Shown here in pieces: positions 14,334-46,500 of a stretch of DNA of 52,007 nt. The DNA is from a virus (lineage: Duplodnaviria; Caudoviricetes), in the IMG/VR virus record IMGVR_UViG_3300042360_000367, positions 1 to 52,007 of that record; one strand, 5' to 3'. The stretch's first letter is position 1. Every line of letters begins with the position of its first letter. The notes beneath the pieces were generated by a model. That model ran no database searches. It worked only from the letters and a program-made list of their open reading frames with translations, and was not told where the DNA came from. The translations under genes and the position numbers were made by a program.

Positions 14334-14348
14334 ATCTACGGGTTAGGC
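14330..14348 (+). other. attI-like simple recombination site at the array boundary
   Basis: GCATATC (reverse complement GATATGC, 6/7 to GTTATGC), 5-bp spacer TACGG, then G|TTAGGC; same L-5bp-R layout as attI; no attC hairpin upstream. Confidence 0.5.
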
Positions 14349-14349
14349 G

Positions 14350-14541
14350 TCAAGGCAGCACCTTCAGCGTGCTGGCGTCGTAGCACTTAAAGCCTTCCCA
14401 CGCCCAGGTGCCGCGCAGCCGCTTCCCACCCTTGGCTTCGCAGTCGGCCTTGGCCGTCACCGCGCCAGTAAGCGTGAGCGCAATGACGACCAGCGCCGCC
14501 ACAATGAATACAGCCTTCAGTTGCTCTCTGCCTGTCAGCAT
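14350..14541 (-). CDS. Cassette 1: small membrane protein
   Basis: 63 aa, one TM helix and a Cys pair; fills the space between the GTT site and attC1. Confidence 0.65.
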   Translation of the reverse strand: MLTGREQLKAVFIVAALVVIALTLTGAVTAKADCEAKGGKRLRGTWAWEGFKCYDASTLKVLP

Positions 14542-14544
14542 GAC

Positions 14545-14643
14545 GCCTAACCCTTCGCTCAGCGCGACCCCGAACGGCGGGGTCTACCGTTGCGCCCTCC
14601 AGCGCCTCAGCGCCGCTCGGGTCGCGGTAGCTATGCGTTAGGC
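14545..14643 (+). repeat. attC site 1
   Basis: GCCTAAC-CCTTC-GCTCAGCGCGAC...GTCGCGGTAGC-TATGC-GTTAGGC. Confidence 0.8.
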
Positions 14644-14889
14644 GCTCTTGGCTGCAAAGTATTGGCGCTGCCAGTACGGCCAACGAATGCTGAAGCAAAT
14701 TAAAAGGTGCAAAAGACCAGGCCAAGGCCCTAGCACTCCGTCGCCTGTAGCGAACCAAACGTTGGCAATTACGAGGTTTGCCCAGAAGGCGCGGTCTTCG
14801 GCGCTCGTTGGCTCCGCGTTCGCGCCTAACCCCTCGCTCAGCCCCCGACCTGCGTCGGCGTTGTGGCTTGGGCTCGCTTCGTCTTTCAT
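14638..14889 (-). CDS. Cassette 2: small membrane protein starting inside attC2
   Basis: AAGGAGG SD and ATG inside attC2; stop is the TTA at the crossover. Confidence 0.7.
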   Translation of the reverse strand: MKDEASPSHNADAGRGLSEGLGANAEPTSAEDRAFWANLVIANVWFATGDGVLGPWPGLLHLLICFSIRWPYWQRQYFAAKSA

Positions 14890-14928
14890 GGTCTCGCCTC
14901 CTTGTCGGGGTTAGCTCGAACGTTAGCC
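14824..14928 (+). repeat. attC site 2
   Basis: GCCTAAC-CCCTC-GCTCAGCCCCCGAC...GTCGGGGTTAGC-TCGAAC-GTTAGCC. Confidence 0.85.
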
Positions 14929-15204
14929 GGCTACCAGCACGCCACGGGTGCGCAGGTAGTGCAGCGCCGCGTATCCCTCGCTGTCCGGCTGCGCGGCGTG
15001 GTCCACGATCACGCCAGGGAAGTCGCGGCCCATCACGTTGCGCGGCTCCAGCCACGACATCGGGCGCACCACTAGGTCATCGCGGCCTAGCTTCTTCGCC
15101 AGTTCCTGCGGGTACGCGGTGCGGCTGTTGCACCACACAAAGACCGCTCCCACCGGGGCCTCGGTCATCTGGCGTGTCGTGGTTCCTGTTCCTCTGTCGC
15201 TCAT
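14923..15204 (-). CDS. Cassette 3: hypothetical protein
   Basis: ATG at 15204 after AAAGGAACGAGG; MSDRGTGTTTRQ...GVIVDHAA; stop at the crossover. Confidence 0.7.
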   Translation of the reverse strand: MSDRGTGTTTRQMTEAPVGAVFVWCNSRTAYPQELAKKLGRDDLVVRPMSWLEPRNVMGRDFPGVIVDHAAQPDSEGYAALHYLRTRGVLVAG

Positions 15205-15231
15205 CCTCGTTCCTTTCGCGCCGGACACGCC

Positions 15232-15332
15232 GGCTAACTCGTCGCTCAACCGGAAACCCCCGGCAGGGCAGCGCTCGCGCGCTTCGTCACTTGCAGTAGC
15301 TGCCGGGGTTTCCGGTTAGCTCTGCGTTAGGC
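15232..15332 (+). repeat. attC site 3
   Basis: GGCTAAC-TCGTC-GCTCAACCGGAAACCCC...GGGGTTTCCGGTTAGC-TCTGC-GTTAGGC. Confidence 0.85.
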
Positions 15333-15746
15333 CGCTTGGGCACTTGGCAGGTACTCGGCCGGCACGTCCCGCAGTTCGCTGGTGTCGATGGTGTAGCCGA
15401 CCCGCTCTGCCTTCCGGAACTTGTGCGAGTGCTCGGACCACTTGAATTTGTATTCGTGACCCGCAGGCGCCCCAACATGGCGCACAACAAGCATGCCGCC
15501 CGGTGTGCGCCGCACAATCACCACGCGGCCCGCGTCTTCTTCGTTGCCACTTCGCCAGCGCCGCACACGCACCATGCGGCACTGCGGCAGCGCAGCGTCG
15601 GCCTCGGTCTGCGCTTGGCGCACAGCGGCATAGGCGGCGCCGTGTTCGGCTTCCAGCCGCTTCAGCGTGTCCCTCGCTGCGGCAACTTCGGCGGCTTTGG
15701 CGCTCAGCGCGGCCTCAGCTTCGATCACTGTCTTTGGCTTCTTCAC
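15327..15746 (-). CDS. Cassette 4: hypothetical protein
   Basis: GTG start after GGAGAG; 139 aa; stop at the crossover. Confidence 0.7.
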   Translation of the reverse strand: MKKPKTVIEAEAALSAKAAEVAAARDTLKRLEAEHGAAYAAVRQAQTEADAALPQCRMVRVRRWRSGNEEDAGRVVIVRRTPGGMLVVRHVGAPAGHEYKFKWSEHSHKFRKAERVGYTIDTSELRDVPAEYLPSAQAA

Positions 15747-15774
15747 TGTTTGCTCTCCAAGGTTGTAGCGGGCG

Positions 15775-15894
15775 GCCTAACCCATCGCTCAAAGCCGACC
15801 CCAAGGGGCCGGCGGCTTGGTTTGTGCTCGTGTGTTCCGTGGTCATCGTTGCTCCTGTGCAGCCCCTTGGGGCGGTTCAGCTCGATCGTTAGGC
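15775..15894 (+). repeat. attC site 4
   Basis: GCCTAAC-CCATC-GCTCAAAGCCGACCCCAAGGGG...CCCCTTGGGGCGGTTCAGC-TCGATC-GTTAGGC. Confidence 0.85.
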
Positions 15895-16161
15895 CTTTTG
15901 CCGCCGCACTTCTGCAATGGCGTTCGCTGCGTCGTCAGCCTGCCGCGCATAGAACATCGACAGTTTCTGTGCTGCCTCGGCCAGCTTGCGCAGGTCGCGT
16001 CGAATGCGGCGCTCCATCGCTGTATCGGTTCCAGGCACACCATGCAAACCGTCGTTCTGGTGCGTGTCTAGCACCGCCGCCACGGCGTCAAAGGTACGCC
16101 GGGCCTCGGCTGCGTTTTGCAGTTCATCGGCCAGTTGTCCAAGACTCTTTGCCATCGTCAT
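15889..16161 (-). CDS. Cassette 5: hypothetical coiled-coil protein
   Basis: GGAGAGG SD; 90 aa; stop at the crossover. Confidence 0.7.
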   Translation of the reverse strand: MTMAKSLGQLADELQNAAEARRTFDAVAAVLDTHQNDGLHGVPGTDTAMERRIRRDLRKLAEAAQKLSMFYARQADDAANAIAEVRRQKA

Positions 16162-16178
16162 CCTCTCCGGCCACCAGG

Positions 16179-16282
16179 GCCTAACTACTCGCTGAACCCC
16201 GCGACCCGCTACGGCGGGCCGCTCCTGTGTTTCTGCCTACTCCGCAGCGCCGCAGCGGTCGCGGTTAGCTCGAACGTTATGC
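16179..16282 (+). repeat. attC site 5
   Basis: GCCTAAC-TACTC-GCTGAACCCCGCGACC...GGTCGCGGTTAGC-TCGAAC-GTTATGC. Confidence 0.85.
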
Positions 16283-16558
16283 AGCACCAACAGCCGCGTC
16301 CCACTCGCGCCGCAGCTTGTCCAGAATCTCGGCGTCGTGTGTGCTGAGCGGCTGACCCACGCGCTGCGCGAGATTGAAGGCCACATCGCTAAGCTGGCCG
16401 CCCACAGCCTTAGTGGCAGCGTGTCGCTTGTCGCAGCCGGCAATCGCCAGCGCCTCAACGCGCTGCGCAAACGCATGTACGGTGCGCCCGGTCGGTGCGC
16501 CTTCGGGAGCGCCGCGCGTTACGTCGCGCCATTCTCTGTTCGCAGTTTTCCTGTCCAT
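16277..16558 (-). CDS. Cassette 6: hypothetical protein
   Basis: ATG at 16558 after AGGAGA; MDRKTANREW...; stop at the crossover. Confidence 0.7.
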   Translation of the reverse strand: MDRKTANREWRDVTRGAPEGAPTGRTVHAFAQRVEALAIAGCDKRHAATKAVGGQLSDVAFNLAQRVGQPLSTHDAEILDKLRREWDAAVGAA

Positions 16559-16591
16559 CTTCCATCTCCTGTAGTGCGCCACCAGGGCGCT

Positions 16592-16676
16592 GCATAACTC
16601 GCGTTTCGAGCAGACGCCCAGCGGCGTAGCTCACTCCGGCAGCGCCACGCGGGCGCTGCTCAAACTATCGTTAGGC
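16592..16676 (+). repeat. attC site 6
   Basis: GCATAAC-TCGC-GTTTCGAGCAGACGCCC...GGGCGCTGCTCAAAC-TATC-GTTAGGC. Confidence 0.85.
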
Positions 16677-16678
16677 CC

Positions 16679-16870
16679 TCAAGGCAAGCGAACAAAAGTC
16701 GGCGCCGGGTACGGGACCGTTTTCCAGCCGATCCATTGCTTGTCGGGTGGGCTCTGCGCTTCGTTGTCCTTGTGGCCCAGAATCTGGTAGTCCGTTTCCA
16801 GGACCACATCGCCATAGCTGCGCAGCACTTTGCCGCCTTTTTCAATCAGGGTGTGGTAATACTCGGTCAT
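16679..16870 (-). CDS. Cassette 7: hypothetical protein
   Basis: 63 aa; GGAGA SD; ATG overlaps the stop of an attC7-encoded leader ORF (ATGA). Confidence 0.65.
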   Translation of the reverse strand: MTEYYHTLIEKGGKVLRSYGDVVLETDYQILGHKDNEAQSPPDKQWIGWKTVPYPAPTFVRLP

Positions 16871-16889
16871 TGCGTTTCTCCACCAACGG

Positions 16890-17010
16890 GCCTAACCCGT
16901 CGCTCAACCGCCGACCCATCACGGCGGGTGTCTTGGTCTGGGTTCGTTTGCTCTGTGGTCATCGTTTTTCCTTTGCGCCGTGCTGGTCGGCTTTAGCTCG
17001 AACGTTAGGC
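16890..17010 (+). repeat. attC site 7
   Basis: GCCTAAC-CCGTC-GCTCAACCGCCGACC...GGTCGGCTTTAGC-TCGAAC-GTTAGGC. Confidence 0.85.
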
Positions 17011-17259
17011 CCCAATACGCTCGCCCAGCGCCTTCAGCTCTGCCCACATGGGGTCGCCTTCGGACAGCGCCTTGCTCAGTTCGCCGCAGGCCATCGCGTA
17101 GTCCAGGCACAGCGCGCGAAGCCGTTCAATCTCTGCTGCGTCGGCCTCTACGCGGTCGGCAGCTTGGCGCGCACGGTCAACAAACTGGTGCAGCCACACC
17201 GCGTCCACTGGGAAAGGCACGGGCATGCGCAGCACGCCCAACAACATCACATCGCTCAT
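17005..17259 (-). CDS. Cassette 8: hypothetical protein
   Basis: 84 aa; 'AADRVEADAAEIERLRA' coiled coil typical of phage early genes; stop at the crossover. Confidence 0.7.
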   Translation of the reverse strand: MSDVMLLGVLRMPVPFPVDAVWLHQFVDRARQAADRVEADAAEIERLRALCLDYAMACGELSKALSEGDPMWAELKALGERIGA

Positions 17260-17282
17260 GTTCTCTCGCTCCGGTAAGAGGG

Positions 17283-17352
17283 GCCTAACCCCTCATTGCA
17301 GAGCCGACCCACGCCGGCAAGCCGGCGCGGTCGGCTGAATTAGGCGTTAGCC
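17283..17352 (+). repeat. attC site 8
   Basis: GCCTAAC-CCCTC-ATTGCAGAGCCGACC-CACGCCGGCAAGCCGGCGC-GGTCGGCTGAAT-TAGGC-GTTAGCC (70 bp). Confidence 0.85.
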
Positions 17353-17583
17353 GGCTTGCAGGTCGGCGCCGTAGTCGCGCGCCAAGCAGTCGCGGTGCCC
17401 ATAGCTGACGGCGTGAGCGTTGTCGTACAGCTCTCCGTTCTCGCGTCGGTACTCGCTCCCGAACACGTACTTGAACGCCTCGCTCATCGGTTTGCCACAG
17501 CGTTCGCAGCCGCCCCAGTAATCCGAGCCGCGCCCGGTTCCTTCAATGCGCCGCACAGTGCGGCCGGTCGGCACACCCATCAC
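17347..17583 (-). CDS. Cassette 9 gene A: small Zn-binding-like protein
   Basis: CERC...HRDC motifs; stop at the crossover. Confidence 0.65.
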   Translation of the reverse strand: MMGVPTGRTVRRIEGTGRGSDYWGGCERCGKPMSEAFKYVFGSEYRRENGELYDNAHAVSYGHRDCLARDYGADLQAG

Positions 17584-17792
17584 AGCACCACGGCGGTTTG
17601 CTTGTGCGCCAGGGCGATCAAGCTGCCGGCGCGCACAGTGCGTTCAACGCTGCCGGCCAGCACAAAGCGAACGGTCTTTGCAGCAACAACCACACGATCA
17701 ATCTCGCTGCCGTCCCAGTACACCAAGCCGCTTTCGAGCTTGCTGGCTTCGATTGCGGGGAACTGTTGGCCTTTGATGTTGACGGTGTTCAT
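17580..17792 (-). CDS. Cassette 9 gene B: hypothetical protein
   Basis: 70 aa; GGAG SD; stop overlaps the start of gene A. Confidence 0.65.
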   Translation of the reverse strand: MNTVNIKGQQFPAIEASKLESGLVYWDGSEIDRVVVAAKTVRFVLAGSVERTVRAGSLIALAHKQTAVVL

Positions 17793-17893
17793 GTCTTGCT
17801 CCGGTTGGTGTTTCGATGGGTGTTATTGAATCACATAAACCAGCGCAGCACAAGCCCCTTCGCACAAGTTTTTGCATCACGTATACTCGCCGC

Positions 17894-18061
17894 ATGGAAG
17901 AACCAAAAAACCATGGTGGCCGCCCACCCGTGCCGCCTGAACAGCGCCTGGTGCAGCGCTCCATTCGCCTCACGCCTGCGCAGTGGGCCAAGATCGACGC
18001 GCAGGGGCTTGCGTGGCTTCGTGCGCTCATAGATCGTGCCCGCACTCCACCAGCCGGCTAA
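17894..18061 (+). CDS. Cassette 9 gene C: ribbon-helix-helix (Arc/CopG-like) regulator
   Basis: MEEPKNHGGRPP...VQRSIRLTPAQWAKI..GLAWLRALID; stop TAA lies in R'' of attC9 (canonical orientation); TATACT ends 6 nt before the ATG. Confidence 0.65.
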   Translation: MEEPKNHGGRPPVPPEQRLVQRSIRLTPAQWAKIDAQGLAWLRALIDRARTPPAG

Positions 18062-18121
18062 CCCTTCACTGAACGCGGACCCGTCACTGCGTGCCGGTCC
18101 GCTTTAGTTCAAACGTTAGGC
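18056..18121 (+). repeat. attC site 9
   Basis: GGCTAAC-CCTTC-ACTGAACGCGGACC...GGTCCGCTTTAGT-TCAAAC-GTTAGGC (66 bp). Confidence 0.85.
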
Positions 18122-18387
18122 GGCTCGTGGCGGGCCTGCAGTTGGCACTTCAGGCAAAGCGGCGCCATCTGCCGAACCGGCTTGCCGCGCGCCGTGCGCG
18201 CCTCCCACTCCATCACATCGCCGCTCAATTCCTGCGGGTAGCGCCACAGCCCGCACTTGCCGCACTGCTTCTGCCGCAGCCCGGCCTTGTGCTGCGCCTC
18301 GGCCCACTCGTGCCAGGCCAAGTAGCCCTCGGGCGCTTGGTCGCCGGGCTTGTAGTGCGCCTGTTCCAAGATGCAGGCAACCTTCAC
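18109..18387 (-). CDS. Cassette 10 gene A: Zn-ribbon protein
   Basis: 'PEGYLAWHEWAE..QCGKCGLW...CLKC'; reads a few codons into attC9. Confidence 0.65.
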   Translation of the reverse strand: MKVACILEQAHYKPGDQAPEGYLAWHEWAEAQHKAGLRQKQCGKCGLWRYPQELSGDVMEWEARTARGKPVRQMAPLCLKCQLQARHEPPNV

Positions 18388-18626
18388 GGCTCAATCCTCG
18401 CGTCACACTCGAATACGATGAATGGCGGCGGGGCCATCCAGACTTGCAGCGGAAACGTGCTGCGGTCGGTGCGGCGCAGGCAGTCTTCGCAGCCCTCGCG
18501 CCAGTCGCCGGGCTCGGGGTCGTAGCCTGCGCACCGCGCCACGTCTGCGGGCAGCCGCCTAACTCCTCGCTGAACCACCGGACCCGCGTCGGCGGCCGGC
18601 TTTGTCTCGTTTGCTTGCGTCATCAC
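18384..18626 (-). CDS. Cassette 10 gene B: Cys-rich small protein starting inside attC10
   Basis: AAGGAGG SD and GTG/ATG inside attC10; 'DVARCAG..CEDCLRR..C'. Confidence 0.7.
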   Translation of the reverse strand: MMTQANETKPAADAGPVVQRGVRRLPADVARCAGYDPEPGDWREGCEDCLRRTDRSTFPLQVWMAPPPFIVFECDARIEP

Positions 18627-18659
18627 GCCTCCTTGGTCCGGTTAGCTCGAACGTTAGGC
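18557..18659 (+). repeat. attC site 10
   Basis: GCCTAAC-TCCTC-GCTGAACCACCGGACC...GGTCCGGTTAGC-TCGAAC-GTTAGGC. Confidence 0.85.
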
Positions 18660-18971
18660 CCTCAAGGCTCGCAAAGCAGGGCACGCCTGCTCGCACACTT
18701 CGGCCAGCACAGCCGCCGCGATGTCGTCAAACGCTGTGTCTGATCTGCTCACGCGCCAGTGCACCGCACCCAAGGCGGCGCGCAACATTTGAATCTCCAT
18801 GTCGCGGTGTGCCAGCTCGGCCGCAATCGCACTCTTTGCGTGCAAGCCTTCCCCCGTCATCGCGCTCATGTGGCGCACAAAGAGTTCACCCTGGGCAACA
18901 TGGTCACGCTCCGCATACAGCGGGCCTAACCCCTCGCTCAGCCCCCGACCTGCACTGTCCCCGCCGCTCAT
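18654..18971 (-). CDS. Cassette 11: phage hypothetical protein
   Basis: MSGGDSAGRGLSEGLGPLYAERD..HMSAMTGEGLHAKSAIAAELAHRD; ATGA overlap with the upstream gene; stop at the crossover. Confidence 0.7.
   Translation of the reverse strand: MSGGDSAGRGLSEGLGPLYAERDHVAQGELFVRHMSAMTGEGLHAKSAIAAELAHRDMEIQMLRAALGAVHWRVSRSDTAFDDIAAAVLAEVCEQACPALRALRA
18924..18953 (+). repeat. Half attC (R''/L'' arm only)
   Basis: GCCTAACCCCTCGCTCAGCCCCCGACCTGC identical to the first 30 bp of attC2; no L'/R' arm follows. Confidence 0.75.
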
Positions 18972-20098
18972 GGCTGGCCTTTCAGGGCGGCGCCCTTGGG
19001 TGCGGGGCTGTAGTCCGGGCGCTTCCATGTGCCGCGAATGACGCTGATGCAGTCGTCGCTGTCGAGCATGTAGTCGCCCTCGGTGACGCAGTGGTCGTCC
19101 TCGGCCTTGATGGCGACGCACAGGCGCTCGCGCTCGGCTGCTAGCGCCTCCGCCAGCCCCTGCTGCACGGCATCGCGCGGGGGCTGCTCTGCCAGAGCGC
19201 CGGCCGCAAAGACACCCCCGGCCGCATCCTCAAGCGCGCACAGTTCCGCCATTTCGGCGGCGCTGCGCTCCGGCTGCTCTCGGCGCACACGGCCTGCATT
19301 CGGGCCGCCAGAAATAAGCCGCGACCGCTGCGCGGGTGTCAGGGTTAGGGGCTGCTCTGCGCGCTCGGCTGGCGTGGGGTGGGTGGCGGCTAGCTTGCGC
19401 AGTTTGCTGGCGAACAAGTAAGCGTTCTCAAGAAGATGCGCAGCCCGAGTGCACACCTCGCCGCGACGAGAGCTACCGCCGCGTAGATCGGCTGCCGTTT
19501 TCAGCCAAGCCGCAAGCTCGCCATCGTCGGGCAGTTCAGCGGGCGCCGGCTGCTCTTGTGCGGCTGGCGTGGGGTGGGTGGCGTAGAACGGGCGCCAGCC
19601 TGCGGCGCGCGCCTCGGCTTCAGTCAGCGGCGCGGGCGGCTGCGGCCCTTTGTGGAAGGCGGGGGCGTAGAAGTGGGGTGGCTCGCTGTCACGAACCCAC
19701 CACGCGGGTGCCGGCTGCTCTTGTGCGGCTGGCGTGGGGTGGGTGGCGGCAAACCGGGAAAGCATCAGGCGCTCAATGGCCCTGGCTACGGCTCGGTCGT
19801 ATTCCTGCGGTGCCATGTTGGCGCACATGATTTCGCTGCACGCCTCGTCAATCTCGGCATCCCGCAGGATGGCCGGCGCCGGCTGCTCTTGTGCGGGCGC
19901 TGCTGAAGGACACACCTGATGCCCGTTGCGAGCCCAAACGCAATCCTTGGGCGAGATTGCGCTTTGCTGCTCTTGTGCGGGCGGGTGGGCGTAGAGGGGC
20001 GTTCCCTCGGGCCGCGGCGCACCGTTCCACTCAAGCGTGTAGCGGCTCATGTGAACCTCGGCGACAAACGCCACCGGCCCGGCCTCGGTCTTGCTCAT
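18968..20098 (-). CDS. Modular early protein with repeated ATHPTPAAQEQPAPA linkers (Ead/Ea22-style mosaic)
   Basis: Start MSKTEAGP at 20098 overlapping the upstream stop; repeated linker peptides. Confidence 0.7.
   Translation of the reverse strand: MSKTEAGPVAFVAEVHMSRYTLEWNGAPRPEGTPLYAHPPAQEQQSAISPKDCVWARNGHQVCPSAAPAQEQPAPAILRDAEIDEACSEIMCANMAPQEYDRAVARAIERLMLSRFAATHPTPAAQEQPAPAWWVRDSEPPHFYAPAFHKGPQPPAPLTEAEARAAGWRPFYATHPTPAAQEQPAPAELPDDGELAAWLKTAADLRGGSSRRGEVCTRAAHLLENAYLFASKLRKLAATHPTPAERAEQPLTLTPAQRSRLISGGPNAGRVRREQPERSAAEMAELCALEDAAGGVFAAGALAEQPPRDAVQQGLAEALAAERERLCVAIKAEDDHCVTEGDYMLDSDDCISVIRGTWKRPDYSPAPKGAALKGQP
19545..19748. repeat. 39-bp perfect direct repeat (19545-19583, 19710-19748) with partial copies near 19366, 19878 and 19967
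   Basis: GCCGGCTGCTCTTGTGCGGCTGGCGTGGGGTGGGTGGCG. Confidence 0.85.
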
Positions 20099-20481
20099 GA
20101 TGCTCTCCGTTCTTCGTTGGCGGCCATCTGCGCCACGGCGAAGATGCTGTTGGGGGTGGTGGTAATGACCTGGCGCAGGGCGCGCAGCTTCTTCTTGTAG
20201 CGGCGCGTGCGCTCCGCATTCGTGAGCGTGCCGGGCCGGCGCGCGTCGGGCTGATTGCCCAGGGCGTACACGGCGCGCAGTTGGTCGCGCGTGTCTTCCT
20301 GCTTGCGCACCCAGCGGGCGATGTAGATGCAGCGCGTCAGTTGCACGCCCTTGTGCATCGTTGAGATTGAGGCTGACACCCTGAACTGGTCCGCCGCAGG
20401 CCAGAAGGCCTGCACCTCGGATCGCGTCATGGGGCCATGCTCGGCCAGAAGCGCGCGGATGGCTGCGTAGCTGGGTTTCAC
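20095..20481 (-). CDS. Hypothetical protein, winged-HTH-like
   Basis: GTG start overlapping the upstream TGA; 'IRALLAEHGPMTRSEV'. Confidence 0.6.
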   Translation of the reverse strand: MKPSYAAIRALLAEHGPMTRSEVQAFWPAADQFRVSASISTMHKGVQLTRCIYIARWVRKQEDTRDQLRAVYALGNQPDARRPGTLTNAERTRRYKKKLRALRQVITTTPNSIFAVAQMAANEERRAS

Positions 20482-21740
20482 GCCACCTCCAGCGCATCGA
20501 CGGCGGCGAACCAGCGGGCCCACCATTCCGGGCCCATCTTGGGGTGCGTGGGGAAGCGGCTCGCGCGGGCTTCGGCGGCCAGGGCGCGCAGGGTGTCGGC
20601 GGGCGTGGGCTCAGGTGTCAAGGATTCCTTGACAGTTGCCGGCTCCGGGTTCACCTCGGCCAGCCCCACGGCCTCGCCCGGGTCTGCGCGGTCGCCGCCC
20701 ATCTCGGCTGCAGTGGTGTGCGGGGCAGCGTCGGGATCGTCGGCGCGGATCGGGTCGCCCGGGTCGGTGGCGATGGCGTCCAGGGTGTCGCCCAGGGCCA
20801 GCAGGTTCGGCAGCGCGGCGGCCTTCTCGCGTGCCGTGGCGGCTGCGCAGCTGGTCTCGAACTCCGCTTGAAGCTCTGCCGCGCGCTTCAGGTCCAAGGC
20901 GGCCAGCCGGTCGCTCTCGGCTTGCTTGGCCGCAGCCTCCGCAGCCCGTGCCGCGGCCTCACGCGCGGCCAGTTCCTCGGCGGCCTTGCGGATGGCGGCG
21001 GCCTCGGCAGCGATGCGGCGTTCCTGCTCGGCGAGCTCGGCGGCCCGGCGCTCGTTTTCCAGCCTGATGGCCTCCTGCCGCGCCGCCTCGGCCTCGCGCG
21101 CCGTAGCCTGGGCGTGCAGCACCTGCATCTGTTCCAGCGCGCGGGCCTTGGCGCCGGCCAGGGCTTCGGCACGGGCGGCGTCGGTGTCGCTCACGTCGCT
21201 GTCGGTCAGCATCTGGATGCCCCGGGCGATACGCTCGGCCGTCATGCCCACTTCCTGGCAGCGCAGCAGGTAGCCGGCGATGGTCTGCAGGCGCGCGGCG
21301 TGGCGCTCCTGGGCCTCGCGCTCGATGCGCTCTTTCTCGGCCTTCTCAGCAGCCCGGCGCTGCTCGTCGGCCTTGATCTGCGCGTCTATCGGCGCCTCCA
21401 GGGCTTCGATCTCGGCCGTGATGCGCGCGGCCTCGGTGTCGATCAGCTTGCCGTAGGCCAGCGCCGGGGCCTTGAAGTCCTTGCGGCGCTTCTCCAGCGT
21501 CGTGCGCAGCGTCACGCAGCGCAGGCGGTCGGCGCGGGCCGCTTGGTCGCCCTTCGTGGTCTTCAGGTCGTAGGTCTTGCCGGCCAGTTCCGCCTTCAGC
21601 GCGGCCAGGCCTGCCTCGGTGGCGCTGTACTTCACCAGCGGGGTGCCGTTGACGATCTGCGCGCGGTCCACCACCTCGTCAGCCACTTCGGCGCGGCGGG
21701 CGATGGTGTCCACGATCTCGGGAAGGGGGGTGTCAAACAC
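20478..21740 (-). CDS. Coiled-coil phage protein of the recombination module
   Basis: GTG at 21740 after GGAG; 'LEKRRKDFKAPALAYGKLIDTEAARI..IEALEAPIDAQIK'. Confidence 0.7.
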   Translation of the reverse strand: MFDTPLPEIVDTIARRAEVADEVVDRAQIVNGTPLVKYSATEAGLAALKAELAGKTYDLKTTKGDQAARADRLRCVTLRTTLEKRRKDFKAPALAYGKLIDTEAARITAEIEALEAPIDAQIKADEQRRAAEKAEKERIEREAQERHAARLQTIAGYLLRCQEVGMTAERIARGIQMLTDSDVSDTDAARAEALAGAKARALEQMQVLHAQATAREAEAARQEAIRLENERRAAELAEQERRIAAEAAAIRKAAEELAAREAAARAAEAAAKQAESDRLAALDLKRAAELQAEFETSCAAATAREKAAALPNLLALGDTLDAIATDPGDPIRADDPDAAPHTTAAEMGGDRADPGEAVGLAEVNPEPATVKESLTPEPTPADTLRALAAEARASRFPTHPKMGPEWWARWFAAVDALEVA

Positions 21741-30442: not shown

Positions 30443-30731
30443 GCGGGCCTCGATGCCCCGCGCGGACGCCAAGCAGACACCGGCGCGCGGGACACGACAC
30501 CTCTACCGGGGGCAAGACGCGGAAGCAGAGGGGCGGGGTGGCGAAGGCAGCGCCCCAGCGTCGAGCGGCTACCGGGTCTATGTGGCTCCAGACGGCACGT
30601 AGTGAAGGACTCATCCGGCAGGCTGGGTCCGTCCACCAAACGGCACCAACGAAGAAAGCATTTGGCTGTTTCTCTATGAGCGCTACTACCTCACCTACGC
30701 ACGCGACGCGCCGGCCGGCAGGGGGCACGCT

Positions 30732-36365: not shown

Positions 36366-36599
36366 GTGAGCGACCCCCTGATGAGCGCTGACGAGATCCG
36401 CCGGGTGGCCGGCGGCTACGTGCAGCCGTCGAAGCAACTGGCCGAACTGAAGCGCCAAGGCTTCTGGCGCGCACGCCGCGCCCGGCTGACTGGCGAGGTG
36501 ATCCTTGAGCGCGCACACTACGAGGCCGTGTGCAGCGGCCAGGATGCGCGCCCCTCGCTGGCGCGACCCGAGCACACGCCCACACTGAGGCCCGCATGA
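36366..36599 (+). CDS. xis: Excisionase-like protein (DUF4224 type)
   Basis: 'MSADEIRRVAGGYVQPSKQLAEL..QG'; stop overlaps the int start. Confidence 0.65.
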   Translation: MSDPLMSADEIRRVAGGYVQPSKQLAELKRQGFWRARRARLTGEVILERAHYEAVCSGQDARPSLARPEHTPTLRPA

Positions 36600-37600
36600 C
36601 CCGATCATCCGGCCTGCCGCGGCGGGTCTACCTGAAGCACGGCCGCTACTGGTTCGTGGCCGTCGACAACAAGTGGCACAGCCTGACGCGCGAGCGCGAG
36701 GGCCTGCCCGCCATGTTCCGCGCGCTGGCCGCCATCACCGAGCAGGCGCGCGCCGGTGACATGATGCCGGCCGTGGTGTCGCGCTGGCTGGAAGAAAAGG
36801 CGGCTGCAGGCGATTGGTCCGAAGACACCAAGACCGACATGGACCGGGTGGCCGCCGCCATCTCCAAGCGCTTTCTGGACTTCCGGCCCTACCAAGTCAC
36901 CACGCCGGTGTGCGCCGAGTACCTCAAGACGTACCTGAAGAAGCCGCGCACCTACAACCTGCACCGCAGCGTGTTGCGCCAGGTGATGGCCGCGGCAGCG
37001 CGCGAGGGGCTGCGCGAGGGGCACAACCCCATCGACAACATCCCGCAGCGCAAGCTGGCCAAGCGCGTGCGCATCGTGACGCCGGCCGAGATCGACGCCA
37101 TGGCCGCGGCGCTGATGAAGGCCAAGCGCGGCGGCCCGGCCCACGTCCGCATGCTCGGGCTGTGCCTGAAGACCGGCCAGCGCATCGGCGACGTGCTGAA
37201 GTTCCGCGCCCAGGACTGCACCGACGAGGGCGTGATCGTTGACCAGGGCAAGACCGGGGCCCCGCTGGTGGTGGAGTGGGACGCCGAGCTCAAGGCGCTG
37301 GTGGACGAGTGCTTTGCAGGCCGGGACCGCATCGGGTTCCTGCTGGTGCAGAGCACCGGCCAGCCCTACCGCTACTCGGGCGTGCGCAGCGCCTGGGTGC
37401 GGGCCATGGAGCGCGCCGGCATCGAAGACCTGCACATCCATGACCTGCGCGGCGAAGCCGGTGCGCGCCTGGCCGACATGCTGGGCCCCTACGCCGCACA
37501 GCTGCTGCTGGGCCATGCCAGCGTGAAGATGACCGAGCAGTACATCGCAGGCAAGACGCGCAAGCGCGCCAAGCCCGCGCCCATGAAAAAGAGCGTCTAA
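36596..37600 (+). CDS. int: Phage tyrosine integrase
   Basis: 'TGQRIGD', 'HDLR', 'LLGH', 'TEQY'; N-terminal arm-binding 'LPRRVYLKHGRYWF'. Confidence 0.92.
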   Translation: MTRSSGLPRRVYLKHGRYWFVAVDNKWHSLTREREGLPAMFRALAAITEQARAGDMMPAVVSRWLEEKAAAGDWSEDTKTDMDRVAAAISKRFLDFRPYQVTTPVCAEYLKTYLKKPRTYNLHRSVLRQVMAAAAREGLREGHNPIDNIPQRKLAKRVRIVTPAEIDAMAAALMKAKRGGPAHVRMLGLCLKTGQRIGDVLKFRAQDCTDEGVIVDQGKTGAPLVVEWDAELKALVDECFAGRDRIGFLLVQSTGQPYRYSGVRSAWVRAMERAGIEDLHIHDLRGEAGARLADMLGPYAAQLLLGHASVKMTEQYIAGKTRKRAKPAPMKKSV

Positions 37601-40467: not shown

Positions 40468-40584
40468 TCAGGGCCTGCTGAACAGCGCGGCCAGGGCGGC
40501 CACGATCAGCAGGCCCCACGGGCCCAGGGTCCAGGCCAGCGTAAGAAGCCCGGCGAGCACGGACCAGCCGCCGAGGTTGTTCAT
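40468..40584 (-). CDS. Tiny hydrophobic protein
   Basis: MNNLGGWSVLAGLL...; ATGA overlap with the giant gene's stop. Confidence 0.45.
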   Translation of the reverse strand: MNNLGGWSVLAGLLTLAWTLGPWGLLIVAALAALFSRP

Positions 40585-43500
40585 TCCTGCGGCTCCAGCT
40601 GCTGGAAGCGCTCGGCCAAGCCCGGCCGCATCTCGCGCGGCGCAGACTTCAACAGGCGAACAGACTTCTCGGTGGTCATGCTCTTCAAGCGCTCGCGCAC
40701 TTGGCTCGGGGTGATGCGGATGGGCGAGCCGGGGTTCTTCCGGTTCCATGAATCTAGCCGTTCCAGCGCCTCGCGCAATCCGGCGGGATCGGAACGGGCC
40801 AGGGCTTTCGCCATCGCGGTGACGATCTCGGTTTCCACCTGGCGCACCAAGGCCACAGCGCGGGCGCTTTCCCCTGCCACCTGCTGCGCCTTCTGCACCA
40901 CCTTGGGCTGGAAGCCCGCGGCCTTGAACCCGGCATCGGCCATGGTGGTCTTGACCACCATGTTCTCGCGCGTGTCCGGGTACATGCCGGTCTGCGCCAT
41001 CATCCCGCCCTTCACCGCGTTCTGCACGGCGATGGGCGAAGCCAGCACCAGGGCCTCCTTCATGCGGCCCTCGGCGGCCTTCCCGATGGCGTCGAACATC
41101 CGCGCCACGAAACTGCCAGCCGCACCGGCCACGTCGGCCACGTCGCGGGCGTAGCTGTCCTTCTTCAGGAACACGCCCGTGCCCGGGATGATGTTGTGCA
41201 GGCCCAGGCGGCCGGACACGTCGAACGGCGCACCGGGCAGGCCGGTGATGCCCTTGGCCAGGAAATCGGCCACCGGCTGGCCCAGGTCTTCACCCACCAG
41301 GGCGATCAGCTGCCGCGCGATCCACTGGTTGCGCTCGAAGCGCAGCGAGAAATTCTTGTCGAACACCCGCTGCATCACGCCGTCGATCACGTCCTCCACG
41401 TCTTCCATGAACGGCAGGCCATCCAGGCCCGCCATCACGGCGATCATCACCAGCGCGGCCAGCAGCGCGCGGCGGCCCTGCGGGGTCTTGGCGTTGCGCG
41501 CCAGGTGCTCCACCATGCTCACGCTGTAGGTCTTGAACGTGAACAGCAGCGCACCCACCGCCCCGCGGGCCCAGCGCGGCCGGTTGCCCTTGTTGTAGAG
41601 GAACTGCGTCTCGCGCACCGCCTTGATGGCGAACTCGTAGGGCCGCGACATCCCCTCCTCTTGCGCCGTGCGGTACGCCGCGATGAAGGTCAGGCGCCGG
41701 TTGAACAACTCCGCGAAGCTGAACGGCTTGCCCCACGCCAGGGTCAGGCGCGAGATCCCGTTGTTCACGCGCGCCCCGGCGTTGCCCAGCAGCGTACCGT
41801 CGCCGGACTGAAGCTGCGCCTTGCCGCTGGCCTGCGCCTGCAGGAAGAACACCTCCTGCGGCGCCACGATGCCGTCCTCGGCCGCGCGGTTCAGCGCCTC
41901 CGTCAGGCCCTTGTCCTTGGGGAACTCGCGCCGGCCCACGTCCTTCAGCGCCGCGGCCATGCGCACACCGGCCTTGCCCACCCCGCCGAACTGGGTCAGG
42001 TAGGGCAGCGTCACCATGAACGGCTGCGTGGCGTTGACGATGGCCGAAGCGATGCTGCCGCCCAGGAACTGCGCGAACAGCACGGAGCGCAGTGCCTGCG
42101 CCTCCTCCTGCGGGTTCTTGACGTACTCGTTCAGGCGAACGGCGTAGTCCTTCAACTGGCCCTTGCTCTGCGGGATCTCCTCGATGGCCCGCTCGGCCGC
42201 GCCAGCGTGCAGGTTGCTGGAGGCCTGGCGCGCGTTGGAGTAGATGAACGAGGCCAGCACGCGGCCCACGTCCTCGCTGAAACCCGGCACGCCCTTGCGG
42301 TGGATCAGCCGCTTCATGCCCGATCGGTTGGCCTTGGCCACCTGCAGCCACTTCTGGAACAGGCTGCTCTTGGCCACTTCGTCGCTCAGGCCCAGCTTGT
42401 CGCCGAACAGTTCCAGCGTCTCGGGCGTGACACCCGCGAACAGCTTGAACTCCTCCTCCGAGGTGGTGCCCTGCTTGATGTCGGCATCGGGGAAGTTCTC
42501 ACGCATCAGGCGCACGGCCTTGGCGCGCTCGCTGCGGCTCTCGTACATGCCGAAGAACTGGCGCACGCCATCCGGCGTCACCACGTCCAGGGTGTACTGC
42601 CCGAAGCGCGAAAGCGGCGCGTAGCCGCGGTCCTTCAGGTCTTCCACCCGGTCGGCAATGTCGATGATGCCGTTGCCACGCGCGTTCATCGCGTCGGCGT
42701 TCTCGGGCTGCTGCTCTGCCAGGTCGAACAGCCGGTCGCGGATGAGCTCGGCTGCCGTCATCAGGTCGGGCTCAGCCAGCACCTGCTCGCGCAGGTCTGC
42801 CACCTCCTCGCCACCCACGCGCAGCATGGTCGTGATGGTGAGATCGTCCAGGCTCTTGTCGGTGGCGCTGCGGAACTCGCGGTACAGCGCAATCTGGCGC
42901 GGGTTCAGCCCAAACATCTTGCGCAGCTCGCCATCGGACCACACCACGCCGGGCTTGAGCACCTCGTTGCGGTACCGGGTTTCGACGTTGGCCTCGAACT
43001 GATCTAGCGGCAGGCCTTGCCACATCTTCAGCACGCGCGGGTTCAGCAGCCGGCGGCGCAGCATCTCTTGCGCCTTGTCCTCGGCGCTCAGCTGTGCGGC
43101 CTGCGCCTCAAGGTCCACCATGCGCACCGGCTTGCCGTCCAAGTCGCGGCCCCAGCCCAGCGTGCCCTCGAACACCGGTGCGCCCAAGGCCTTCACGTCG
43201 GCCGGCGGCAGCGGGGCTTTCAGGATGTCGGTGATGCTCTCCAGCTTGGGCAGGATGCTCGGCGCGAGGTTGGCCGCCTCGGTGGCGTAGTGGCTGATGT
43301 CGTCCATGAAGTTCTGGATCGACTCGAACACCGGCCGGAAGCTGCGCTCACGCTCTGCCAGGTTGTATGGCGTGCCCACGGTCTTGTGCCACCAGTGCAG
43401 GCGGCCCAAGCTGTTGCCGAACCAGTCGCCCACCACGTACCCGGCGGGCAGGCGCACGTCGCGCAGCGCGGCGCCGGGCTTGGACAGGGCGGCGGTCAAG

Positions 43501-46500
43501 GCCTTGGTGGCGACGCTCGGGCTGCGGCTGAAGACGGTGCCACGCCCACCGGCCAGCGTTTCCGCCACGGCCTGCAGGTCAACGCCGGCCAGGTCGTCCG
43601 CGCTGATGTAGCTCGAACCGTTTTCCTCGCGGAACGGGATGCCCGCATCGGTCAGGCGCTTGTAGATGGCCAGCGCATTGGTGCTGCGGATGCTCTCGGA
43701 CTGCCAGCCCATGCCGCGCTTCTGCGCGATGTTCAGCGCCTGCAGGTACATGGTGGTGGCGGCGCCAGTCCCGGCCGGGAAGCCTTCAGCGCCCACTTCC
43801 AGCGACGAGGTGTAGACCGTCGATCCGTCGTCGCGGTTGAACTCGCGCACGTTCAGCGCGGCCCACTGCTTGCCTTCCTCGCGCGAAAGCACGAAGTTGT
43901 CCCGCGTGCCGGTCACAGTCGTGGCTGGTGTGGTGTCGAAGTCGGCGAACTTGTAGCTGCTGGTGAGATCCCTCCAGGCCCGGTCAAGGTCGGCGCCGGC
44001 GGCTTGGTCGGCTCGGCTGAACCGAATGTCAGGGTCTGCCGGGTCGAACGTGCCGCGGTTGCCCACTGCGCTCTTGATCTGCTCGGGGCGGAAGGCGATG
44101 TAGTACCCCTTTTCCGGGTCATGGATGCCGTCGTGCTCCGGCCCAGGCTTTGCGGGCCAGATGGCCGGGTTCTGGATCGACAAGTACACCGGCATCACAT
44201 TGGGCGTCGAGGCGATGTCGCGGGCAACGCCGATCTTGTCCAGCACGCCCCAGGCGTTGCCGTTGGTCGCCAATTCGCGCGTCAGCGCCTCCGGCCCCTC
44301 CTGCGCCGCGCGCATCACGCTGCGCCAGCGGCTGGCGGTCCCCATGTCCTCGCGGGCATCGCGCAGCGCAGCCTTGGTGCCAAGCCGCTGCACCACCTTG
44401 CGGGCGTCAGCGGCCGTCAGCGGGCGGTCTAGCTGCCATCGCTGGTTCTGCCACGCGAACCCAGCGCCGTTGAACGATGCCGCCCACTCCAGCTCCTGGA
44501 AGGTGGGCAAGTCGCCGCGCGCATCTGCCGCGCCCAGGCCGCCAGCGACTTTTGGGTCAGCGGTGAAGTAGAAACCCTTTCCGTACCAGGCGCGGTCCGA
44601 CTGCTTGGCCGTGTCGAATGCATCGAAGCTCTCGCGGGTGCCATGATACACCACCAGCGGCTTGCCCTCGGCGTCCACCACCTTGCTTTCGCCGAACCAC
44701 TTGCGGAAGGCCTCGCTGGTGGTCTGCGCGGCCCGGCTGAACGCCGCTTCCCCCACCCGGAACAGCGGCCCGCCGGTGCGGCTCACGTCCTCGGCACGCT
44801 TCACCAGGGCCAGCACGTCAGCATCGGTCCACGTCTTGGGCTCGATGGCGTCGGCCACGCGAGTCCACTTCAGCGCGTAGAACACGTCGGCCAGCTTGCG
44901 CAGCGCCGCGCGCATCGCGGCCACCAGGCGCGGCACGCCCTTCAGTGCCAGCACGTCGGCCACCGGCATGTCGGCCAAGGCTTCTTCTGTCGCCAGCACC
45001 TTGGAGGTGGCCAAGCGATCCGCGATCTTCTTGTCGGCCAACTCGCGCACCGCCGCATTGGTCTGGTAAATGCTGAGAAGCATCAGCCCCCGGGCGTCGG
45101 GGTTCGGCATCAGGGACCGCAGGCCGTAGTGGCGCAGTTCATGGTGCGCCATGACAAACTGCAGGCGCTCCAGGCTGGCGATGTTGCCCGGGAAGATGAA
45201 CACCTCGCCCTCGTGGAAGGCGCCCTCCACGTCGGCACTCGCGCCAGCGCTGCGGATCTTGCTCAGCAGGCTTGCCGGGGCTTGGTCGACACGCTCCAGC
45301 AGGGTGATGCGCGGGGCCTTCGGCATCGCGCGCAGCAGGGCGTCGCGGGCCGCTTCGGCGTCGGCCATGGCCACACCGCGGCCAGCGCCGCGGCTGAAGA
45401 CGGCCGGCGCCTTTACCCCGTACTCGGCCATGACTTCGCCTGCGATCTGCATCACCCGGTCGTAGTCGGTCAGATACCGCTCGGTGCGCTTGCTGTACCC
45501 GACAGTGGCCTTGATGGTGTCGATCAGACTGCCGGCGATGCTGCCCACGCGCTGCAGCAGCGTTTTGTTCTTTGCGCCCAGCGCCTGCCAGAAACCGCGG
45601 TCCATGAAGCCATCGGACAGCACTTCACCGATGAACTCTTCGCGCTGCTTGTCGGCGTTGCCGGCGTTCTTGGCGACAGGGCTGTTGACGAACTCTGCAG
45701 CGTAGCGGCCTTGATCGACGTAGGGCCGGATGGCCTGCACGAGCTGGTCGTACAGGTCCGGCCGCTCAACGCGCAGCCGGTGGGCCAACTCGTGCCCCAA
45801 GACCGAAAGGTGCGGCCGGTCGTTGCCGGTCGCGCGCAGGAAGATCGTGCCGTTGACGTATGCGCCGTTGAAGAACCCGAAGGTCCGGCGCTGGTCGTCT
45901 AGAAGGTCGGGTCGAAGGTCGAACCCTTGGAACCGCTGGCCGAAGGCTTCTGCGATGCGTCCAAGTGCCTCATTTCCAGGAACGAGTCTTCCGACATATG
46001 GAAGAACTGAATCTGCTCCGGCCCCCCGTGCGACCTTGGCAACGGCACGGTTAAGCACCCCGATGTTCCGGGCTGCGTCTGCGGAGGTGTCTTCCTGGCT
46101 TCCATCCTGCGCAGTGTACTCACCATCGTTGGTGTTGAACATCGCCACGTTGCCAGCGTCGTCGGTGCGGGTCGAACCTTCCGGCTTGTCAATCACCACC
46201 ATCCGCGCGTTGGCGCCCGTGTTCACTGGCAACGTCGGGTCCATGAAACTGCCTTCGGCCAGCTTTTCCTCGGTGCCGCCCAGGCTCTCCAGCCACTCGC
46301 GGAACTCGGTCGCGCGCTTGTTCTGGTTGGTGAAGGCAGACTCGCCCATCAGGGCCACCAGCCGGCCGCCTGGCTTCAGCAGGTCGAAGGCGTGGCGAAC
46401 GTGCTGGATGTCCCGGCCTTCGCTGAAAGGCGGGTTCATCAGGATGCGGTCGTAGCCACCTTCCTTCAGCCCCAGGAAGTCCTGCGCCACCACATTGAAG

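Follow-up and report, generated by a model that had tools for sequence, protein, structure and literature searches.

Predicted Start Signals Inside the attC Sites of Reversed Phage Cassettes

The integron recombination sites (attC) and the gene starts inside them were evaluated in a 52,007-base stretch of DNA, IMG/VR record IMGVR_UViG_3300042360_000367, which is an entire virus record and is called the window below. The record is linear, 81% complete and derives from a temperate phage. Ten attC sites lie within 14545-18659; outside this interval there are a half-site, at 18924, and an isolated GTTAGGC, at 14342. We consider it probable that the array consists of phage genes arranged as reversed cassettes, that attC2, attC10 and the half-site likely supply the translation start of the gene, and that movement at G|TT, likely by an integron integrase (IntI) acting in trans, would carry the ribosome binding site along. 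On the top strand (+), the sites read R'', a 5-nt spacer, an 8-nt L'' with an extra C, the loop, a 7-nt L', a spacer and R'. The array genes are encoded by the bottom strand, most of them with a stop codon supplied by the TAA in the R' that follows.

The first-pass annotation had reported a Shine-Dalgarno (SD) motif and a start codon on the bottom strand of attC2 (14824..14928, +) and attC10 (18557..18659, +), and both were found there, each in an opened loop. In attC2, AAGGAGG (14897..14903, -) lies 7 nt ahead of the ATG at 14889, which opens the 83-aa cassette 2 gene (14638..14889, -) of a small hydrophobic protein family. The product begins MKDEASPSHNADAGRGLSEGLG..., crosses the site in the LSEGLG frame and ends at the TAA in attC1 R'. 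In attC10, the bottom strand reads AAGGAGG-C-GTG-ATG (SD at 18628..18634, -). The start proposed earlier, 18626, is the GTG, 1 nt from the SD, and the ATG at 18623, 4 nt from the SD, is likelier; the SD-pairing score was -10.3 kcal/mol for ATG 18623 versus -3.2 kcal/mol for GTG 18626. The first gene of cassette 10 (79 aa, 18384..18623, -) therefore likely starts at the ATG, runs in the VQRGVRR frame and gives MTQANETKPAADAGPVVQRGVRR-LPADVARC, with the LPADVARC core beginning 2 nt past R''. The read-through peptides quoted before are residues 14-23 of the products, not the extreme N-termini.

The half-site (18924..18943, +) consists of R''-spacer-L'' without L'/R'. The 105-aa gene that crosses it (phrog_34533; 18654..18971, -) reads MSGGDSAGRGLSEGLG and stops in attC10 R', and its ATG is overlapped by the TGA of a 509-aa open reading frame (ORF) located upstream. 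This ORF (18968-20497) contains internal repeats of ~50 nt.

The idea of a dual-coded element was supported, in that the recombination site also contains the SD, the start and 21-22 codons. It was to fail if translation started downstream of R''; in these genes, the stretch from R'' to the conserved core has no ATG, GTG or TTG, and the first such codon downstream lies within the core in all three window genes. Judged by sequence, the recombination site thus holds the only plausible start codon in two cassettes, and attC2, attC10 and the half-site likely supply the start of their genes. The sequence and the homologues agree with a translation initiation region, whose use by ribosomes is a prediction. 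Read-through into the gene was restricted to two of the ten full window sites (attC2 and attC10) and the half-site. In attC4 and attC7, an SD-ATG opens short ORFs that are not joined to the main gene, and six window sites have no such start.

Homologues With and Without attC

The homologues indicate that each of the three gene families exists in two states, a plain phage gene and an attC-headed cassette. Homologues without attC start a few residues ahead of the conserved core, where the window has no start. For the attC10 gene, six residues or fewer precede the LPADVARC core in 31 of 55 parsed homologues, and attC-like N-termini were present in 10 of the 55, one being a near-copy of that in the window. 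The same family was examined at 80 protein-anchored viral loci, of which 59 were left after 16 duplicates and 5 loci without the motif had been dropped. No site was found at 51 of these; 5 carry a site or half-site 2 nt ahead of the core with no start between, one of these loci matching the window exactly, and the other 3 combine a short site with an SD-ATG of their own. Two-state families of this kind are the expected residue of a cassette-making process.

Most of the 86 parsed homologues of the half-site gene begin a few residues before YAERD, and attC peptides were recognized in 4 homologues by pattern and in 3 further ones by eye, in both frames. For the attC2 gene, an exhaustive search with the core gave 13 matches, and 3 long or repetitive ones were excluded; among the 10 members read by eye, 4 begin directly before the core and 4 carry attC-like peptides. 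A word-index search and a protein atlas yielded no relative of this core.

In viral loci L058-L174, 20 of 93 R''-L'' pattern matches had no detected L'/R' half, some of them being detector misses or chance. Several half-matches lie in reading frames and place LSEGLG or VERGVR peptides in ordinary-looking genes. In practice, N-terminal LSEGLG or VERxVR peptides in phage proteins point to attC sites, and start-codon calls for attC-headed genes need caution.

Loop Starts Across Viral and Host Sites

The frequency of loop starts was evaluated by a joint criterion (SD, start codon, read-through of at least 30 codons and coding score). It was satisfied by 75 of 249 viral sites versus 2 of 584 host sites, and both host positives sit on small phage-like contigs. 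Shuffling of the loops gave 9.9 +/- 3.2 viral sites (30 shuffles, maximum 18). When the SD condition was dropped, the values were 102 viral, 5 host and 38.8 shuffled. The viral loop starts use two reading frames (55 VR, 47 LG). The observation is hence real and statistically firm, and the loop start module is present in a minority of sites, namely 2/10 in the window and 30-41% of the viral sites.

The position of the loop starts relative to the gene's own start was then compared; 35 of 276 viral sites had no clear gene. For the 72 genes without an own start, the loop start was in frame in 49, out of frame in 5 and absent in 18, and for the 169 genes with an own start the numbers were 39, 30 and 100, respectively. 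In-frame loop starts were enriched in genes without an own start (p = 8e-11), also when each gene cluster had one vote (44, 5, 17 vs 33, 28, 89; p = 6e-10). Because loop starts sit on genes that lack their own, this pattern supports initiation in the loop over the reading of the motifs as a by-product. In host loci L424-L434, attC lengths cluster at 126, 129 and 132 nt, and a bottom-strand ATG is present in the loop of 407 of 584 sites.

Site Family, Polarity and Gene Orientation

The ten window sites have R'' (RYYYAAC) and R' (GTTRRRY) that are complementary, with 5-nt and 5-6-nt spacers; attC2 R' carries one mismatch. L'' and L' pair, with the extrahelical base in L'' at the same position as in host sites. 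Exact patterns from the conserved arms retrieved 55 and 117 viral stretches and, among the matches listed, 240 genomic ones, mostly from Rubrivivax and other Burkholderiales. A profile detector recognized 268 viral sites, with a median length of 100 nt, and 407 genomic ones, with a median of 129 nt; it gave 0 matches in 1.39 Mb of shuffled DNA. From these arms, the window sites are assigned to the attC family of Burkholderiales (Rubrivivax-type) chromosomal integrons. Both attC2 and attC10 align with host sites across both arms, the inner stem being absent, and the phage SD aligns with a GGAGG or GCGGCGG stretch in the 5' arm of the host site. The sites would have passed from host to phage.

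Four of five host genomes tested encode an IntI above the TIGR02249 cut-off. The polarity assigned here is canonical because intI is opposite to the top strand of the array in three host genomes; the earlier view that each attC belongs to the cassette on its left agrees with this placement of host sites of the same family. Gene orientation was called by a codon model trained on 12 genes of the window phage. Viral cassettes gave 126 bottom, 0 top and 43 unclear (n = 169), and host cassettes 141 top, 19 bottom and 254 unclear (n = 414); by the longest ORF, 364 of the 414 host cassettes were top. Inspection of the 19 host bottom calls by eye identified 3 on a phage-like contig, 14 spurious-looking short or antisense ORFs, 1 PIN-like gene and 1 phage-type cassette. 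In the window, all eight scored cassettes were bottom-strand, and one additional top-strand ORF is present in cassette 9. The canonical layout, in which a top-strand gene lies upstream of its attC and is read from the cassette promoter Pc, is hence absent. Two or more attC without an integron integrase nearby define a cluster of attC sites lacking the integrase (CALIN), to which the window corresponds at a record completeness of 81%.

Not every phage array is reversed: that of TJE1 is canonical, and the single site detected in MW202573 is reversed. In TJE1 (L518:1016-1075), a methylase gene enters attC on the top strand and stops in the loop, and the next ATG overlaps R'. The published sites of PH101 were not found in the first 50 kb, which were scanned. 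A whole attC is inverted within a host array at L221:4148-4165 (G005:C7).

Cassette Movement and Loop Exchange

In viral locus L035, window cassettes 3 and 2 recur with bodies and attC 100% identical, in the order 3-2 and joined at G|TT, and are followed by an unrelated cassette. It had been proposed that the ribosome binding site travels with its gene. Cassette 2 does move with attC2 in L035, whereas loops are also exchanged between genes. Thirty pairs share a right flank and differ in the loop; 12 of the 19 pairs that are informative for the 4 nt after GTT agree there in a non-consensus variant, and the spacer before GTT shares one in 0 of 24. By comparison only, the crossover is placed at G|TT in R'. 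Contigs from three lake runs diverge from the window at 15333, the end of attC3; this joint alone was used, most others between runs and window having short sides and possibly being sites of other organisms.

Of the 23 multi-member gene clusters, 17 have at least two loop types. Among 100 loop types, 30 are found with two or more genes, and a single type serves 8 genes, all in frame. The link between start module and gene is not fixed because loops also swap between genes. The breakpoints of these swaps vary within the R''-L'' arm, and the swaps could stem from homologous recombination of the phage, from IntI acting on the top strand or from crossovers at L. In L060, near-copies of window attC5 and attC9 occur twice each in one phage, on different genes.

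Integron Integrases and Exchange With Hosts

The tyrosine integrase of the window (36530..37600, +) was excluded as the shuffling enzyme, since it has no match to the IntI family (TIGR02249) and is not an integron integrase. The window contains no complete integron: there was no TIGR02249 match for the integrase, no IntI match by tblastn and no attI motif. An IntI-like gene was found in 1 of 256 viral loci, and a search with this gene as the query led to 22 viral loci. At 20 of them, the frame looks intact and has the IntI insertion and the catalytic motifs; intI of L542 is frameshifted. The IntI-like gene of L018/L524 was set aside as truncated and a possible assembly chimera. All nine phage IntI tested were above the TIGR02249 cut-off. 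At 12 loci, an upstream attC has its bottom strand co-directional with intI, and the opposite arrangement was found at none. In a tree with 34 bacterial IntI, 30 of which represented the top matches in 151 genomes belonging to the host family, 13 of 17 distinct viral IntI formed a separate clade (100/100); three duplicates and one short row were left out.

A motif precedes the intI ATG at 14 of 21 viral loci and at 0 of 34 bacterial loci (by pattern). The cassette side of its AAC is variable and the side towards the ATG is constant, and the motif is read as a putative attI-like site. The cassettes beside it were 16 bottom, 0 top and 5 unclear. Loop starts are present in the IntI-bearing loci L525, L526, L530, L533 and L545. 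In two IntI-bearing records, both of them complete tailed phages, intI is adjacent to the gene of the phage integrase. With an IntI over the cut-off, an attI-like site and an attC array, phages L525-L545 have the parts of a complete integron, whose activity is predicted. The intI genes of this clade in L525-L545 (IMG/VR), for example G162:C1 and G163:C1, lie where reversed cassette arrays end and neighbour the integrase of the phage itself. At 86% identity, 17799-18062 of the cassette 9 body of the window recurs in the IntI-bearing phage L541, and attC4 (15775..15894, +) in the IntI-bearing phage L525. The capsid protein of the window had no match in five IntI-bearing records; therefore, these are not close relatives by the capsid gene. 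The own integron integrase of related phages likely shuffles such cassettes, and a host IntI is the other candidate. By pattern, a LexA-like box is present at three of four host intI genes.

One case, among 414 host cassettes, bears on exchange. At G005:C7:510533-511061 (L431:12034-12562), a reversed phage-type cassette lies between canonical cassettes, ~10 kb from intI; its site has 60 nt, and its protein is 73% identical to a viral cassette gene (L119). The layout suggests passage from phage to host, and a reversed cassette in a host integron indicates exchange between the phage and host pools.

Proposed Mechanism and Alternatives

The following steps are proposed. The sites, as the comparison of arms indicates, belong to the Burkholderiales attC family with their genes reversed. 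The long inner stem of the host sites, absent from the phage alignments, would have been lost, and the SD would be exposed because the stem shortened around a GGAGG already present in the host 5' arm. Where R'' occupies the position of the native Met, comparison with the homologues shows a loop start in frame, from which translation is predicted. By comparison of loci, the neighbour changes exactly at G|TT with attC carried along; the enzyme would be an IntI encoded by a co-infecting phage or by the host, because the window record has none. The same comparison shows that loops are also exchanged between genes within the R''-L'' arm.

The first-pass annotation had further suggested that the mRNA hairpin regulates translation. 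The same mechanism could include a switch in which the hairpin masks the SD and is opened by a ribosome that terminates at the TAA of R', an addition that we consider rather unlikely. The stop codon does lie in the 5' arm, the TAA of the upstream gene being 27-45 nt ahead of most loop starts, and coupling with that gene is possible. Removal of the R' arm cut the predicted cost of opening the ribosome footprint from 12.7 to 7.5 kcal/mol in attC10 and from 6.6 to 3.8 kcal/mol in attC2, and in class 1 integrons attC hairpins affect downstream translation, according to the parts of that work consulted (PMC8876359). Across 77 sites, however, the median fell just from 9.5 to 8.3 kcal/mol, and loop starts were predicted to be as accessible as ordinary window starts (9.5, n = 77, vs 10.6 kcal/mol, n = 22; p = 0.66); the predicted cost for full host hairpins was 41 kcal/mol (n = 60). 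As DNA, attC2 and attC10 fold no better than shuffles (z 0.13 and -0.17), and attC removal was mostly of little effect in the sections seen of PMC11511950. A structure hiding the SD, as in a translational attenuator, was not predicted, and in these models the loop is opened and not converted to a switch. The z values were -2.9 for attC4 and -2.5 for attC7. A crude folding probability (pfold) above 0.1 was obtained for 79% of 75 loop-start sites, which suggests that the recombinogenic fold is kept in most of them; nine window sites had values of 0.03-1.0 and attC2 had 1e-4.

The sites could instead be chiefly short homology linkers for recombination by the phage Erf and exonuclease, which would make an integron integrase unnecessary. 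In favour of this, the window lacks IntI and does encode an exonuclease and an Erf-like annealing protein, and swap breakpoints are varied: 6 of 8 same-gene pairs keep the R''-L'' spacer together with the gene, and in 8 same-loop pairs a non-consensus spacer is common to both members although their genes differ. We give this reading little credence. The points at which neighbours change fall at GTT, after the spacer and ahead of the 4-nt tail; IntI and an attI-like site are present in related phages; one host integron contains a cleanly placed phage-type cassette; and the recombinogenic fold is predicted to be kept.

Still less probable is that the SD-ATG is a by-product of the purine-rich attC bottom strand, with genes starting past R'' or not being expressed. 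Bottom strands of attC are purine-rich (in the part seen of PMC5027507), an SD and a start codon also occur in the loop of 199 of 584 host sites, and 169 of 241 viral genes retain their own start. Nevertheless, composition-preserving shuffles give ~10 sites and not 75, the first downstream start codon of the three window genes is inside the core, and in-frame loop starts are concentrated on genes without their own. The slimmest chance is left to an inverted polarity with top-strand recombination at R'', in which the layout would be canonical and the start module would belong to the upstream cassette: some same-loop pairs do switch genes right at R'' and top-strand recombination is known, at a 1,000-10,000-fold rarer level (same portion of PMC5027507), yet among 37 pairs with a shared right flank the loop differs in 35, the extrahelical base agrees with that of host sites whose polarity is canonical, the positions of intI and the attI-like site are those predicted by bottom-strand recombination, and free exchange at R'' would break the two frames in use (55 VR, 47 LG).

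Several points weigh against the explanation by reversed, self-starting cassettes. The case for loop starts is built from sequence comparison, on viral sites that are interrelated and were gathered with patterns from the window. The SD-ATG spacing of attC10 is short (4 nt), and the predicted folding probability is low for attC2 (1e-4) and attC10 (0.04). Among the 72 genes without an own start, 18 have no loop start at the thresholds used and 5 have one out of frame. The phage-trained codon model leaves 254 of 414 host cassettes unclear, and the viral split by longest ORF is weak (93 bottom vs 76 top). In 12 of 17 same-gene pairs, the attC differs, for which bottom-strand recombination gives no explanation. 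The window has neither IntI nor an attI motif in a record that is 81% complete. Loop ATGs are rarely in the frame that meets TAG in R'' (viral 2/94, host 4/61), and this avoidance is no sign of phage selection because host sites show it too.

Relation to Known Systems

In the standard description, an integron cassette is a gene that has no promoter of its own, is read on the top strand and has its attC behind it. As far as the sources were covered, phage CALINs, integration at attG and leader ORFs in attI or attC have already been published (PMC9892861, 10.1101/2022.09.11.507474, PMC8876359, PMC5027507, PMC2727003, PMC11511950, PMC8352920, PMC13323075). A literature search found no account of a phage IntI clade or of phage cassettes that are reversed and start in attC, with subscription papers and some supplements outside its reach. 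New here, by the sequence evidence above, is a host-type attC that is used backwards and would also supply the translation start.

In the sections covered of the study by Qi, Rajabal, Ghaly, Tetu and Gillings (2023; PMC9892861), five phage attC recombined with IntI1 on the bottom strand. Its phage CALINs resemble the window in having attC clusters among small phage genes and no integrase nearby, and differ in that bottom-strand genes or attC-internal starts are not reported in those sections; the flanking gene of TJE1 is on the top strand, whereas the window genes are on the bottom, and the complete integrons described there are pieces of host or class 1 integrons and not the phage IntI clade. 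The sedentary chromosomal integrons of Rubrivivax and related Burkholderiales have near-identical R''/L'' and L'/R' arms and the same polarity. Their sites are 126-132-nt full hairpins with top-strand genes, whereas those of the phages, at a median of 100 nt, are shorter, have open loops that are richer in A and go with bottom-strand genes. ORF-11, ORF-17 and ORF-18 in attI1 and short attC ORFs likewise are translation signals borne by a recombination site, and in the excerpts seen these leaders are on the top strand and serve the next cassette by coupling (PMC8876359). In contrast to such leader ORFs, the phage attC lies on the 5' side of the gene, in the same cassette, and is fused to it in frame.

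The IntI-bearing phages may also be set beside inverted-integrase ('reverse') integrons, of which Treponema denticola is an example. There too intI and the cassette genes are co-directional; in the part of PMC13323075 covered, intI is inverted relative to attC, whereas in the phages it is the cargo genes that are inverted, intI and attC being canonical to each other. Genomic GWT positions are targets at which IntI integrates cassettes (attG; Loot et al., 10.1101/2022.09.11.507474, in part). A TAAC stop gives GTT on the opposite strand and may offer a possible entry route into phage operons; the portion of the attG study consulted has no account of phage genes becoming cassettes.

A wider and distinctly more tentative proposal, short of probable, is that temperate phages of Burkholderiales run their own mirror-image integron, with a phage IntI clade and its own attI, reversed self-starting cassettes, new cassettes made by the module and passage to host integrons. 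A phage IntI with its own attI would be transcribed behind the reversed self-starting array, attC start modules would replace the native Met of ordinary phage genes and so make new cassettes, and these could enter host chromosomal integrons. The origin of new cassettes is treated as unresolved in the text consulted of PMC8352920. If the proposal is true, phages would be a cassette factory and that origin would become directly testable, with the phage IntI clade as a candidate enzyme for assay.

Remaining Features of the Array and the Record

The left boundary of the array is the bare core site GTTAGGC (14342..14348, +), which has no L' partner and is not the attI motif of the IntI-bearing phages. 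A role as a true attI was unsupported, and some viral boundaries only loosely resemble host sites. The 63-aa cassette 1 gene (14350..14541, -), with a homologue in L035, has its ATG directly after R'' of attC1 (14545..14643, +), whose loop has no start. The cassette 3 gene (14923..15204, -) has its own SD-ATG past R'' and its stop in attC2 R'; the loop of attC3 (15232..15332, +) has no start. The cassette 4 gene (15327..15746, -) has its own SD-GTG, and a 43-codon ORF out of frame with it (15715..15846, -) begins at the SD-ATG in the attC4 loop, in the LSDGLG frame. The cassette 5 gene (15889..16161, -) has its own start, and the loop of attC5 (16179..16282, +) contains an SD-like CAGGAG and no start codon. 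The cassette 6 gene (16277..16558, -) and the cassette 7 gene (16679..16870, -) each have their own SD-ATG; attC6 (16592..16676, +) was recognized by the first detector and not by the profile detector. In the loop of attC7 (16890..17010, +), an ATG opens a 31-codon ORF (16867..16962, -) in the VERRVR frame. This ORF ends on a TGA that shares bases with the ATG opening the cassette 7 gene, and translational coupling of the two is possible.

The cassette 8 gene (17005..17259, -) has its own start, and attC8 (17283..17352, +) and attC9 (18056..18121, +) are short, with loops that have no start. The cassette 9 body (17347..18061) has a divergent layout with two bottom-strand ORFs, a sigma70-like site (17859-17887, +) and one top-strand ORF of 55 aa with a canonical end on the TAA of R''. 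The product of this ORF, which resembles a small DNA-binding protein, had no Pfam match. Cassette 9 may include a promoter for downstream cassettes. The second gene of cassette 10 (18109..18387, -) starts at a GTG that overlaps the TGA of the first gene. Searches of Pfam, NCBIfam and PHROGs gave no function for the array proteins except phrog_34533 and one sub-cut-off match, and nothing in Rfam matched within the array. Among cultured phage records there was a single weak match only.

At least half of the words of the array were present in eight of the listed sequencing runs, all eight being lake water metagenomes and five of them possible sources of the window DNA; no RNA run among those listed contained array words. 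The window also encodes capsid, portal, terminase, helicase, Erf-like annealing protein, exonuclease, methyltransferases and the tyrosine integrase. The Rfam Betaproteobacteria-1 RNA motif lies at an ORF start (30455-30577), and a 3,803-aa ORF with methyltransferase-like PHROG matches (40581-51992) reaches the end of the record.

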